Assembly (NCBI RefSeq): GCF_003790525.1
Contig: NZ_CP033635.1
DNA: 64,000 nucleotides
Origin: Escherichia coli
GTDB lineage: Bacteria; Pseudomonadota; Gammaproteobacteria; Enterobacterales; Enterobacteriaceae
Direction: 5' to 3' (one strand)
Shown here: positions 25,666-62,384 of the stretch, piece by piece
Layout: every line of letters starts with the position of its first letter
Position numbering within the stretch: the first letter of the stretch is position 1
Program-made: the position numbers and the translations under genes
Notes under the pieces: generated by a model
Databases searched by the model: none
Seen by the model: the letters and a program-made list of their open reading frames with translations, nothing else
Told to the model about the DNA's origin: nothing

Positions 25666-26591
<926 letters not shown>

Positions 26592-26744
26592 TTTCACTTC
26601 ACGACACTCCAGCCAATTTTGGGAGGAGTGTCGTACCGTTACGATTTTCCTCAATTTTTCTTTTCAACAATTGATCTCATTCAGGTGACATCTTTTATAT
26701 TGGCGCTCATTATGAAAGCAGTAGCTTTTATGAGGGTAATCTGA

Positions 26745-27638
26745 ATGGAACAGCTGCGTGCCGAATTAAGCCATTTACTGGGCGAAAAACTCAGTCGTAT
26801 TGAGTGCGTCAATGAAAAAGCGGATACGGCGTTGTGGGCTTTGTATGACAGCCAGGGAAACCCAATGCCGTTAATGGCAAGAAGCTTTAGTACGCCCGGA
26901 AAAGCCCGACAACTGGCATGGAAAACCACCATGCTGGCAAGAAGTGGGACTGTCCGTATGCCGACTATTTATGGTGTGATGACGCATGAAGAACACCCCG
27001 GCCCCGATGTCCTGCTACTGGAGCGGATGCGTGGTGTTTCGGTGGAGGCACCAGCCCGAACACCAGAACGCTGGGAACAACTCAAAGATCAAATCGTTGA
27101 AGCCTTACTGGCCTGGCACCGTCAGGACAGTCGCGGTTGCGTCGGCGCGGTCGACAATACTCAGGAAAATTTCTGGCCCTCATGGTACCGGCAACATGTT
27201 GAAGTGCTATGGACCACGCTCAATCAGTTCAATAACACCGGTCTGACGATGCAGGATAAGCGGATCCTGTTTCGCACTCGCGAATGTCTCCCGGCATTAT
27301 TTGAAGGCTTTAACGACAATTGTGTACTGATTCACGGTAACTTCTGTTTACGCAGCATGCTGAAAGATTCGCGCAGCGATCAGTTACTGGCGATGGTCGG
27401 ACCGGGACTAATGCTTTGGGCACCGCGAGAATACGAACTGTTCCGACTAATGGATAATTCTCTGGCGGAAGATTTGCTCTGGAGTTATCTGCAACGCGCG
27501 CCAGTGGCGGAGTCGTTCATCTGGCGGCGTTGGTTGTATGTGTTATGGGATGAAGTTGCGCAACTGGTCAACACCGGACGATTTAGTCGGCGTAACTTCG
27601 ATCTGGCATCAAAATCACTCTTGCCGTGGCTCGCCTGA
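26745..27638 (+). CDS. ycbJ: Putative phosphotransferase / kinase-like protein YcbJ
   Basis: 297-aa ORF; 3-prime end overlaps elyC on the opposite strand by 24 bp. Confidence 0.88.
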   Translation: MEQLRAELSHLLGEKLSRIECVNEKADTALWALYDSQGNPMPLMARSFSTPGKARQLAWKTTMLARSGTVRMPTIYGVMTHEEHPGPDVLLLERMRGVSVEAPARTPERWEQLKDQIVEALLAWHRQDSRGCVGAVDNTQENFWPSWYRQHVEVLWTTLNQFNNTGLTMQDKRILFRTRECLPALFEGFNDNCVLIHGNFCLRSMLKDSRSDQLLAMVGPGLMLWAPREYELFRLMDNSLAEDLLWSYLQRAPVAESFIWRRWLYVLWDEVAQLVNTGRFSRRNFDLASKSLLPWLA

Positions 27639-28394
27639 CGAACCTTTCAGCCATTGCCAGATCCGGCCAAGCGTTTCATAGCCAACGCGGTCGCTATGCA
27701 TCAACCAAACCGGAGAAGGGATTGCCCGTTCCCACGGATTAAGCGGCGAGTCGATGGCCAACTGATTCGCCGGGGCTGGTAGCGGATTTAACCCTTCCTG
27801 CTGAAAAAAGATCATCGCCCGCGGCAGATGTGATGCGGAGGTCACCAGCAGGAAAGGGGCGTCACCAATCGCCTGTTTCACTGCCGCAGCTTCTTCTTCG
27901 GTATCTTTTGGCAAATCCAGGGTGATAATTTGCTCGCGCGGTACGCCCAGCGATTGCGCAACTCTGGCACCTACTTCCGCTGTACTCACCGTATTGGTTT
28001 TTGCTACGCCTCCCGTGAAGATCAGTTTTGATCCCGGATTTTCGCGCCATAAGCGAATACCTTCATTCAGGCGTGGCAGACTGTTATTGATTAAATTCGA
28101 ACTCGGTGCCCACTGTGGGTTCCAGGTATAACCGCCTCCGAGCACCACGATATAGTCCACTTTTTGCGAATTATTCCATGTCGGATAGGTGCTTTCGATG
28201 GGACGCAGCAGGCGGTCGGCTACCGGTTGCAAACTCAATAACAAGAGCGCCAGCCACCCAATGCTAATAAAAATCTTCCCGGTTTTTTGAAAACGGCTAA
28301 ACCACAGCAGCGCCAGGCCAGCGCCAATAATCAACAACATCAGCGGAAGTGGCAGCAACATATTGCCAATCACTTTTTTCAGTGTAAAAAGCAT
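27615..28394 (-). CDS. elyC: Envelope biogenesis factor ElyC (DUF218)
   Basis: 259-aa ORF MLFTLKKVIGNMLLPLPLMLLIIGAGLALLWF... with N-terminal TM helices; formerly ycbC. Confidence 0.9.
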   Translation of the reverse strand: MLFTLKKVIGNMLLPLPLMLLIIGAGLALLWFSRFQKTGKIFISIGWLALLLLSLQPVADRLLRPIESTYPTWNNSQKVDYIVVLGGGYTWNPQWAPSSNLINNSLPRLNEGIRLWRENPGSKLIFTGGVAKTNTVSTAEVGARVAQSLGVPREQIITLDLPKDTEEEAAAVKQAIGDAPFLLVTSASHLPRAMIFFQQEGLNPLPAPANQLAIDSPLNPWERAIPSPVWLMHSDRVGYETLGRIWQWLKGSSGEPRQE

Positions 28395-28529
28395 CCTTTC
28401 TGGTTCCTTTTTTAACCATATAGCAAGGGATCGCCAGCGATATTACACCAGACGGGTTCATTCTCGCCGTGGCTGTGACAAAATAGCGTCTTTATCAGAA
28501 AACGTCTTAGCCAACCGGTGGAGAAAGCA

Positions 28530-29315
28530 ATGCAGGATCGCAATTTTGATGATATTGCGGAAAAGTTTTCCCGTAACATTTACGGCACCACCAAAGGGCA
28601 GCTTCGACAGGCTATTCTGTGGCAGGATCTCGATCGCGTGCTGGCGGAAATGGGCCCGCAAAAACTGCGTGTGCTGGATGCTGGCGGTGGAGAAGGGCAG
28701 ACCGCAATCAAAATGGCTGAGCGCGGGCATCAGGTCATTTTATGCGATCTTTCTGCGCAGATGATCGACCGCGCAAAACAGGCGGCAGAAGCAAAAGGTG
28801 TGAGCGACAACATGCAATTTATACATTGCGCCGCTCAGGATGTTGCTTCGCATTTGGAAACGCCCGTTGATCTGATATTGTTCCATGCGGTGCTCGAGTG
28901 GGTGGCCGATCCCCGCAGCGTATTACAGACCCTGTGGTCAGTGTTGCGTCCAGGCGGCGTGTTGTCGTTAATGTTCTACAATGCGCACGGCTTGCTGATG
29001 CATAACATGGTCGCCGGGAATTTTGATTACGTGCAGGCGGGAATGCCGAAAAAGAAAAAACGGACGCTTTCGCCAGATTATCCACGCGACCCGGCGCAGG
29101 TTTATCTGTGGCTGGAAGAAGCTGGTTGGCAAATTATGGGTAAGACAGGCGTTCGTGTGTTTCATGATTATCTGCGCGAGAAGCACCAGCAGCGCGACTG
29201 CTATGAAGCATTACTTGAATTAGAAACGCGTTATTGCCGTCAGGAACCGTATATTACCCTGGGGCGTTATATTCATGTCACCGCGCGCAAACCGCAGAGC
29301 AAGGATAAAGTATGA
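28530..29315 (+). CDS. cmoM: SAM-dependent tRNA methyltransferase CmoM (SmtA)
   Basis: Track ORF 28518..29315; start trimmed to [19 protein letters not shown] (261 aa); SAM-binding motif VLDAGGGEG; stop overlaps the mukF start. Confidence 0.9.
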
Positions 29316-60624: not shown

Positions 60625-60735
60625 ATATTCATCACTGTTGCTTATTTAGACATTTTGTACTTTTATTGTTGAGGTTATTAAGCGAAGCGACAATGGATTG
60701 TGTTGCTGCGGTTTTATAGGGTAGGGGAGAGGCAA

Positions 60736-61278
60736 ATGCGAATTAAACCAGACGATAACTGGCGTTGGTATTACGATGAAGAGCACGATCGAATGATGCT
60801 CGATTTAGCCAATGGTATGCTATTTCGCTCACGTTTTGCGCGCAAAATGTTGACTCCAGATGCCTTTTCTCCCGCAGGCTTTTGCGTTGACGACGCCGCG
60901 CTCTATTTCTCATTTGAAGAAAAATGCCGCGATTTTAATTTATCTAAAGAACAAAAAGCCGAACTGGTGCTTAATGCGCTGGTAGCAATTCGTTATCTCA
61001 AACCGCAAATGCCGAAAAGCTGGCATTTTGTTTCCCATGGTGAAATGTGGGTGCCCATGCCGGGCGATGCGGCCTGCGTTTGGTTGAGCGACACTCACGA
61101 GCAAGTCAATTTGCTGGTCGTTGAATCTGGCGAAAATGCCGCACTATGCCTGCTGGCACAACCCTGCGTTGTTATAGCGGGTCGCGCGATGCAGCTGGGC
61201 GACGCCATCAAAATCATGAACGACAGGCTGAAACCGCAGGTTAATGTTGACAGCTTCAGCCTCGAACAGGCAGTTTAA
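60736..61278 (+). CDS. zapC: Cell division Z-ring associated protein ZapC (YcbW)
   Basis: Track ORF 60700..61278; start trimmed to [24 protein letters not shown] (180 aa). Confidence 0.92.
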
Positions 61279-62384
61279 CGCGTCAGCTTAAGTGCAGTCT
61301 TCGGTACACAACTACAGCAAAGAATAGTGCCATCATCACCCATTGCTGATTTTTTCAGCGGCGTGACTTCGCCTTCTAAAAGCTGAACACGGCAACTTCC
61401 ACAAATGCCCGCGCGGCAAGAATAAGGGATACGAATTCCCTGATTTTCTAATTGCTCCAGCAGCACCTGTTGGTTATTTCCACGAAATGCCTGTCCCTGC
61501 CAGTCAATATCTACGTTTGCGTCCGGTTGTTGCGTGATGTTGGCAGTATCATCGGCGGCACCTGCGCCGTAAATTTTAGCTGGAGCCGTTGCCAGAATTT
61601 CCACCTCATCGCCAACGCGAATCACGCCGCTATTACGGGCAATTAAATTCTGACCAAAATCGACATCGCCGTTATCCTGGGCAGTACGGAAAGATTGCAG
61701 CGTTTTTAATGGTTCGCCTGCCGGATGTTTTTGCCCTTTTTCTGGGCTGACGGTGGTGAAAATACAGCGGCTACAAGGCTTAACCACATCAAACACGACA
61801 TCACCAATGCGAATCACTTTCCAGCTATCTTCTTCCCAGGCCGATGCACCGGAAACCACCAGATTGGGGCGGAATTGCTCCATTTTTACACTGGCCGGAC
61901 AACGTTGTTGGAGATCACGTAACGAGGCCTCGTTAGCAAGAAGGTAAGGATAACCATCAGCAAATGACAGGGGTACAGTGTTGTGGCGTTTCACGCGCCG
62001 GGTCATTTGTGGCCCCACCCAGCGTAATTGCACTTCGCGGGAGAAAAATCCACTTAGCCATTTGTTGATCGCGTCTGGCGCAATTCGCGCGGTAAAATGT
62101 GTGCCCCAAACTTCGGTTGGTGCGTCTTGTGTGGCGAAATCAGCAAAACGAACATATGCACTACTGCCATCTGGTGCGGTGAGATGCAAGCCATCATGCA
62201 CGGGTGAAGGAGTAAACCGTACCATTAGCGGAAACTGGCGAGCGGTAATAAACGTACCGTCAGGTTCCGTGATCATAAAGATGCGATCGAAGGCCAGACC
62301 ACTGACATCTGCCAGGGTATGTGTAAGACCAATGCCGCGCATCGATTTAACAGGATGAATAAAAAGCCGGGTTAATGTCGCCAC
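61275..62384 (-). CDS. ycbX: MOSC-domain protein with C-terminal 2Fe-2S ferredoxin domain
   Basis: 369-aa ORF; C-terminal cysteine cluster [11 protein letters not shown]; 3-prime end overlaps zapC by 4 nt (convergent). Confidence 0.9.

Follow-up and report, generated by a model that had tools for sequence, protein, structure and literature searches.

The convergent Escherichia coli genes ycbJ and elyC share a 24-nt coding overlap that is probably maintained passively

Background

The genes ycbJ and elyC lie tail to tail in the window analysed here (the whole 64-kb stretch of Escherichia coli DNA, with positions counted from its first letter), and their coding sequences run into one another over the last 24 nucleotides of each. 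The features of the junction are the following:

26745..27638, + strand: ycbJ coding sequence, YcbJ family phosphotransferase, 297 aa (ORF list, NCBIfam, Pfam, RefSeq)
27615..28394, - strand: elyC coding sequence, envelope biogenesis factor ElyC, 259 aa (ORF list, NCBIfam, Pfam, RefSeq)
27615..27638, both strands: shared 24 nt, encoding YcbJ S291-A297 plus stop and ElyC S253-E259 plus stop
27615..27617, both strands: TCA, Ser291 codon of ycbJ and TGA stop of elyC
27636..27638, both strands: TGA, stop of ycbJ and TCA Ser253 codon of elyC
27639..27644, - strand: hypervariable linker formed by elyC codons 251-252, with the largest entropy of the junction alignment (1.14 bits)

The sequence at 27615-27638, TCACTCTTGCCGTGGCTCGCCTGA, translates as S-L-L-P-W-L-A-stop on the + strand and as S-G-E-P-R-Q-E-stop on the - strand. 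Within it, codon position 2 of one gene faces position 2 of the other and position 1 faces position 3, and because the codons are in register the TGA of each gene is a TCA serine codon of its partner. Raw sequence and ORF list agree with a preliminary description of the locus, according to which ycbJ ends at 27638 (+) and elyC at 27615 (-) in a coding overlap of 24 bp; its wording that the last eight codons are shared holds if the stop is counted, the overlap comprising seven sense codons and a stop per gene.

YcbJ and ElyC are genuine conserved protein-coding genes, with hundreds of homologues of constant length. YcbJ matches the NCBIfam equivalog NF007890 over residues 1-297 of 297 and carries a Pfam APH domain at residues 64-249; ElyC matches equivalog NF007794 over 1-259 of 259 and carries Pfam DUF218 at residues 80-231, and both domains stop well short of the overlapped tails. 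The RefSeq annotation of strains SMS-3-5, MG1655, C600 and O157:H7 shows the identical 24-nt overlap, with MG1655 coordinates 971752..972645 for ycbJ and 972622..973401 for elyC (window positions equal MG1655 positions minus 945007). A 2025 preprint also describes ycbJ as overlapping elyC in opposite orientation and states that deletion of ycbJ inactivates elyC (10.1101/2025.02.11.637708). The overlap is real, ordinary, and already annotated and published.

The 2-kb region 26600-28600 is 100% identical to E. coli SMS-3-5 (NC_010498.1), and the junction was found in 5424 of 5426 complete E. coli genomes. Among the matches listed, 39 of 40 records have both genes annotated over the junction. In the exception, E. 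coli R9 (record H70), the match covers annotated elyC only, because ycbJ is interrupted by a prophage. This is a Mu-like transposable element of ~38 kb in the 3' end of ycbJ (locus L091, NZ_CP107164.1, ~76,170-114,310), with genes for Mor, Gam, a transposase-like integrase, tail proteins and a Gin-like recombinase; its insertion point corresponds to about 27601-27607 of the window, just upstream of the overlap, and leaves ycbJ truncated or altered and elyC intact. The broken junction of R9 is an incidental prophage insertion. Elsewhere in the window, coordinates extrapolated from SMS-3-5 are 18 nt off at zapC/ycbX (~61.3 kb), which reflects either imperfect collinearity with NC_010498.1 or a different strain.

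Methods

Related loci were collected with a profile scan built on the YcbJ alignment, using one genome per species and retaining the best 80 of 289 relatives, all of them Enterobacteriaceae whose YcbJ is 81-99% identical; at the DNA level the sample does not extend to genera such as Klebsiella, Serratia and Yersinia. The best 80 yielded 79 usable loci, in which both protein tails were translated from conserved motifs to the first stop, and the tails of four loci lacking the motif were checked by eye. One YcbJ relative of 295 aa (P0123), which aligns to about residue 221 and then continues in unrelated sequence, with the look of a frameshift or assembly error, was left out of the alignments. 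Structure models were computed from shallow alignments (8 and 12 sequences) and reached a mean pLDDT of 70-75.

Results and discussion

Conservation and loss of the overlap

Conservation in other enterobacteria had been put forward in the preliminary description as a check, and the overlap is indeed kept: the two coding sequences overlap in 74 of the 79 Enterobacteriaceae species loci (94%) drawn from the best 80 of 289 relatives. Across these 79 loci from the best 80, the overlap measures 24 nt in 67, 21 nt in five and 36 nt in two, while the genes abut in one and are separated by a gap in four. The 21-nt overlaps in this sample of the best 80 of 289 relatives, which include S. enterica arizonae and Yokenella, have two origins: in four of them (L022, L060, L062, L069) a ycbJ leucine codon, TTA or CTA, constitutes an earlier elyC stop, and in the fifth (L077) the TCA remains the elyC stop and it is ycbJ that has one codon fewer. 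In both 36-nt cases (L059, L076) the ycbJ TGA has been lost and YcbJ has gained four residues. In the abutting pair, from Escherichia sp. MOD1-EC7003 (L005), a CTA in the linker is read as TAG at elyC codon 252, so that the end of elyC abuts the ycbJ stop. The same 251-aa ElyC, ending eight codons earlier at a TAG that abuts the ycbJ stop, occurs in some E. coli and in Shigella flexneri as well. An earlier stop in other strains, which the preliminary description had named as possible grounds for doubting the overlap, is thus found in a minority (some E. coli, S. flexneri and MOD1-EC7003), but the 24-nt form is the norm; the 251-aa ElyC is natural variation, with no sign of a sequence error here.

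All four gapped loci among the best 80 of 289 relatives belong to the Citrobacter freundii group. Their gaps span 35-117 nt and contain classic REP palindromes between the two stops (e.g. GCCTGATGGCGACGCTGACGCGTCTTATCAGGCCTAC), and their ElyC ends in W-L-K-G-(S/A/R)-E-H. The REP-containing spacers are located as follows, in coordinates of each locus:

L008:1364-1480, Citrobacter freundii group
L015:3895-3929, Citrobacter freundii group
L020:3895-3987, Citrobacter freundii group
L031:3895-3952, Citrobacter freundii group

These REP insertions exchange the last eight residues of ElyC for S/A/R-E-H and break the overlap, amounting to a natural uncoupling experiment. The overlap is not obligatory: it has been undone naturally at least twice, with neither gene lost.

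At 73% YcbJ identity, Dryocola, Cedecea and Buttiauxella have a 21-nt overlap. Klebsiella ElyC, seen at the protein level, has 259 aa and a tail S-G-D-P-x-Q-D, which is consistent with the same overlap. Further out, Plesiomonas shigelloides (42% YcbJ identity) has a 30-nt gap and an ElyC tail K-H, a distant lineage at 33% identity has a 107-nt gap between ycbJ and elyC, and a lineage at 44% identity carries no elyC at the corresponding position. Since distant lineages are convergent but gapped, the convergence of the two genes predates their overlap, which is characteristic of Enterobacteriaceae.

Which protein the shared DNA serves

The L-P-W-L of the YcbJ tail is kept down to 33% identity, including in lineages without the overlap, and L292, P294 and W295 are invariant. 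This tail lies within a predicted helix (H282-296) that is the top-scoring part of the model, with a pLDDT of 81-90. The invariant residues of ElyC end at W246, L249 and K250; beyond G251 the protein has between 0 and 8 residues, unrelated among distant lineages, and its tail is predicted as coil with a pLDDT below 50. Synonymous ycbJ changes inside the overlap (CTC/CTG/CTT/TTG and CCC/CCG) switch ElyC residues between E, K and Q and between G and R.

Column entropies point the same way. The overlap averages 0.33 bits, with 13 of its 24 columns invariant, versus ~0.6 bits in both flanks, and its variation tracks the codon periodicity of ycbJ (0.67 bits at position 3, 0.39 at position 1 and 0.07 at position 2), while variation in elyC-only DNA tracks elyC periodicity. 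The hypervariable linker at 27639..27644 lies between the conserved ElyC core (W246..L249-K250) and the overlapped tail, and it is here that the 251-aa variants carry their premature TAG and that REP elements have inserted in Citrobacter. Some constraint from the other strand is also suggested. Third-position variation in ycbJ is lower within the overlap (0.67 bits) than just upstream of it (1.16 bits), and YcbJ codon 297 appears as GCC, TCC, GTC or ACC, varying at its first and second bases and always ending in C, so that ElyC Gly254 is kept in 59 of the 67 species with the 24-nt form among the best 80 of 289 relatives. The retention of Gly254 points to an ElyC tail under some constraint and not wholly free; the conservation of ElyC Pro256, on the other hand, follows from the invariant Trp295 of YcbJ, which forces it. 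The best explanation of these patterns is that the shared 24 nt evolve mainly under YcbJ protein constraint, with the ElyC tail as a dispensable passenger.

Selection on the borrowed stop codons

Ser291 is encoded by TCA in 74 of 79 species from the best 80 of 289 relatives, and the other conserved ycbJ serines use AGC or AGT. For comparison, the majority codon at 114 other conserved ycbJ sites with at least four-fold degeneracy has a mean frequency of 0.55, peaking at 0.95. The five loci without TCA at Ser291 (TCT, TCG, TCT, TCT and GCG; best 80 of 289 relatives) all fall within the nine of 79 loci in that sample where elyC stops earlier, a coincidence with a hypergeometric probability, by our own arithmetic, of ~6e-6, or ~8e-5 when the five are taken as four independent events. 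A synonymous site of ycbJ is thus frozen because it doubles as the elyC stop, and selection is visible mainly on this TCA codon.

In the register of the overlap, stops arise only opposite TCA, TTA and CTA codons, about one per 20-32 codons. Loss of the ycbJ TGA in E. coli would add 48 residues, the next in-frame stop lying 48 codons on, and loss of the elyC TGA would add two residues in E. coli, which has a backup TCA at S289, and ~24 residues otherwise. Because loss of either stop would add a long extension, purifying selection is expected on both. The backup TGA for elyC, at the TCA of YcbJ Ser289 (27609-27611), is present in four of the 67 species with a 24-nt overlap in the set of the best 80 of 289 relatives.

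The length of the overlap is statistically unremarkable. A run-on of seven sense codons is shorter than the run length expected in this register, and two of the five convergent gene pairs in the 64-kb window overlap in their coding sequences. The second pair, homologues of zapC and ycbX (ORFs 60700..61278 on the + strand and 61275..62384 on the - strand), shares TTAA at 61275..61278. Like ycbJ and elyC, these are real opposite-strand genes that share their 3' ends, with a frame running on to the next stop in the neighbour, and they too are among the convergent transcript overlaps of MG1655 (PMC12288877). They differ in that their 4 nt consist of two interleaved TAA stops, whereas ycbJ and elyC share 24 nt in register and co-encode seven residues each.

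Transcription and termination at the junction

The features relevant to transcript ends around the junction are:

27600-27608 / 27656-27664: inverted repeat GATCTGGCA / TGCCAGATC, a perfect 9 bp, bracketing the overlap in E. coli
27113 (MG1655 972120), + strand: peak of a Rho termination region, inside ycbJ (PMC7815308, supplementary file 2)
27456..27604, - strand: candidate Rho loading region proposed from composition, C-rich and G-poor RNA downstream of the elyC stop and antisense to the ycbJ 3' end

No terminator-like site was found on the + strand from 27638 to 28350, or on the - strand below 27615 within ycbJ, and a search of Rfam gave no match at E <= 1 in 26000-29000. The preliminary description had concluded that neither gene can have a conventional terminator. 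This stands insofar as there is no room for an intergenic terminator and no intrinsic-like site downstream of either stop, but is overstated, given that a terminator can sit inside the neighbouring ORF and that Rho-dependent termination is also conventional; a significant Rho termination region has been published for the ycbJ strand (PMC7815308).

A conserved hairpin or bidirectional terminator at 27600..27664 was considered and rejected. Local folds at the junction are no more stable than those of shuffled sequences (non-significant z-scores of +0.69 and -1.5), the outer pairs of the inverted repeat are broken in 19-45 sequences across 73 species, and its covariation score (0.032) is no better than that of slid controls (0.038-0.064). 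The arms are conserved coding sequence, specifying conserved residues D-L-A and W-L in YcbJ and I-W-Q and W-L in ElyC.

Published data place a Rho-dependent limit on transcription of the ycbJ strand. Its Rho region has a score of 5.47 (p = 5e-12) and peaks inside ycbJ, ~525 nt before the junction (PMC7815308). In DirectRNA-seq, coverage in 800-nt windows drops from 135 to 18 when bicyclomycin is absent and from 192 to 140 when it is present; windows of this size place the limit only around the gene and junction and do not locate true 3' ends (PMC7815308). In the Term-seq tables of the same source the Rho region inside ycbJ is the only entry for the locus; a curated 3' end is listed neither for elyC nor for the junction. 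For the elyC strand we relied on composition: RNA downstream of the elyC stop has a C/G ratio of 1.7-1.9 in 78-nt windows at offsets of 10-80, where the 95th percentile of the whole window is 1.69, and RNA downstream of the ycbJ stop is weakly C-rich, its ratio falling from 1.5 to ~1.0, although composition alone proves no rut site. Termination by Rho inside the partner gene is most likely for both transcripts; for the ycbJ strand it is partly shown, at low resolution, and for the elyC strand composition suggests it.

That the transcripts are antisense to each other at their 3' ends, as the preliminary description had it, is borne out: full-length mRNAs are complementary over at least 24 nt, and the pair is among the 165 convergent transcript overlaps detected by ExcludonFinder in at least 50% of 58 MG1655 RNA-seq samples (NAR 2025, PMC12288877).

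Upstream of the junction, the position of the Rho peak (~27113) suggests premature termination of much of the transcription on the ycbJ strand, which may be read-through from kdsB, and a low expression of ycbJ. A terminator-like hairpin with a T-rich tail at 26566-26589 (+) overlaps the end of kdsB, whose stop lies at 26591, and the 153-nt spacer between kdsB and ycbJ holds a weak promoter-like match at 26685-26713.

Origin and maintenance of the overlap

We consider it likely that the junction is a passively maintained tail-to-tail coding overlap, formed by a run-on of elyC into the end of ycbJ. Under this model, ycbJ and elyC would be ancient convergent neighbours that at first had a short spacer between them. 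In an ancestor of Enterobacteriaceae, elyC would have lost its own stop together with the spacer, would have come to read seven additional codons into the reverse complement of the ycbJ 3' end, and would have stopped at the first in-frame stop available, the complement of the TCA of YcbJ Ser291. The direction of this change, with elyC extended and not ycbJ moved, is one that we infer from three distant loci only. From then on, the YcbJ C-terminal helix would dictate the shared sequence, the disordered ElyC tail would shift with each synonymous ycbJ substitution, and purifying selection would act mainly on the two stop codons. Because no spacer remains there is no intrinsic terminator, and transcripts would enter the neighbouring gene as antisense RNA and be ended by Rho; the transcripts would then overlap at their 3' ends, as many others do in E. 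coli, and this may give mild mutual interference. Nothing indicates a dedicated regulatory device. What preserves the arrangement in this model is not a need for the overlap but the fact that an insertion or deletion at this place would either harm YcbJ or abolish a stop.

The same persistence, in 94% of sampled species from the best 80 of 289 relatives, could nonetheless reflect selection for the arrangement. The main rival reading takes the overlap as a selected convergent excludon, in which transcription or mRNA of either gene represses its partner, by collision of polymerases or by cleavage of the 3' duplex by RNase III, and so couples YcbJ and ElyC expression. In principle RNase III could act on a duplex of this length (at least 24 bp), convergence is conserved across Enterobacterales, with the overlap itself in 74 of 79 Enterobacteriaceae species (best 80 of 289 relatives), and the pair belongs to the MG1655 convergent excludome (PMC12288877). 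Membership in that list, however, is decided by coverage overlap alone, which a pair of overlapping coding sequences can almost not fail to show. The overlap has moreover been lost without gene loss, through REP elements in the C. freundii group and, in some Escherichia, through an early TAG; most of the transcription on the + strand is lost to Rho ahead of the junction or near it (135 to 18 reads; PMC7815308); no hairpin is conserved across the 73 species; and we found no reciprocal-expression data for ycbJ and elyC in the literature. We therefore regard a selected excludon as unlikely, and the more specific proposal that obligatory 3' antisense pairing or polymerase collision makes expression of the kinase-like YcbJ and of ElyC reciprocally dependent as quite improbable. 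If true, such coupling would link the putative phosphotransferase activity of YcbJ to the control of undecaprenyl-phosphate, peptidoglycan and enterobacterial common antigen, and selection, not inertia, would then explain why the arrangement is conserved throughout the family.

Selection might instead act on protein, the eight-residue ElyC tail being functional and the overlap being kept because both protein tails are needed. The largely conserved Ser253-Gly254 and Pro256, the behaviour of YcbJ codon 297, which varies where this is synonymous for ElyC Gly254 and never at its own third base, and the damped third-position variation of ycbJ inside the overlap are all in line with this idea. It is hard to reconcile with natural 251-aa ElyC proteins ending at G251 in E. 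coli, Shigella and Escherichia sp., with replacement of the tail by S/A/R-E-H in Citrobacter and by K-H in Plesiomonas, with the charge-reversing E/K/Q and the G/R variation within it, and with its prediction as low-confidence coil (pLDDT below 50), and Pro256 is in any case imposed by YcbJ Trp295; we judge a needed tail to be very unlikely. An annotation or sequencing artefact, with one of the genes ending earlier and no true overlap, might be suspected from the shorter 251-aa ElyC of some strains, yet it is extremely improbable in view of the presence of the junction in 5424 of 5426 complete E. coli genomes, the end-to-end equivalog matches of both proteins, the identical stops in 67 of 79 species (best 80 of 289 relatives) with selection seen on the TCA/TGA codon, and the conserved, predicted helical terminal residues of YcbJ.

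Comparison with known systems

Excludons as catalogued by ExcludonFinder are likewise convergent genes with 3'-overlapping transcripts, and ycbJ-elyC is on the list (PMC12288877), but excludons owe their regulatory meaning to mutually exclusive expression and to processing by RNase III, whereas ycbJ and elyC are known from transcript overlap alone, which is unavoidable because their coding sequences overlap. The bidirectional terminators of the class of Ju et al. 2019 resemble the locus in joining a convergent pair with overlapping 3' ends and no canonical intrinsic terminator; going by the account of that class given in bioRxiv 10.1101/2022.10.23.513370, they need a hairpin-encoding element and are Rho-independent. 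At ycbJ/elyC the inverted repeat shows no structural conservation and transcription of the + strand responds to bicyclomycin (PMC7815308), which sets it apart from the class as so described. The pair mscL/arfA (PMC10070815) similarly consists of convergent E. coli genes with mutually antisense 3' RNA and is also on the ExcludonFinder list (PMC12288877); there a regulatory role is reported for the antisense interaction, unlike at ycbJ/elyC.

Conclusions

The geometry of the overlap bears on the genetics of both genes. The seventh codon from the end is S291 TCA in ycbJ, the stop of elyC, and S253 in elyC, the stop of ycbJ. A standard knockout of either gene (Keio design) would remove the stop codon of the partner, if the Keio primers followed the standard design, and with that stop removed each knockout should give the neighbouring protein a scar-encoded extension. 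This expectation fits the remark that ΔycbJ inactivates elyC in the 2025 preprint, which already puts the ΔycbJ phenotype down to that inactivation (10.1101/2025.02.11.637708); ΔelyC phenotypes have been complemented in trans (PMC3879167). Neither the knockout nor the shared-codon point opens a new question, and the main value of the locus lies in a caution and in a small textbook example. The caution is that phenotypes assigned to the uncharacterised ycbJ need re-checking. The example is one of selection on a shared codon, in which a synonymous site is frozen as the stop of the partner gene and is freed once an earlier stop has been gained.
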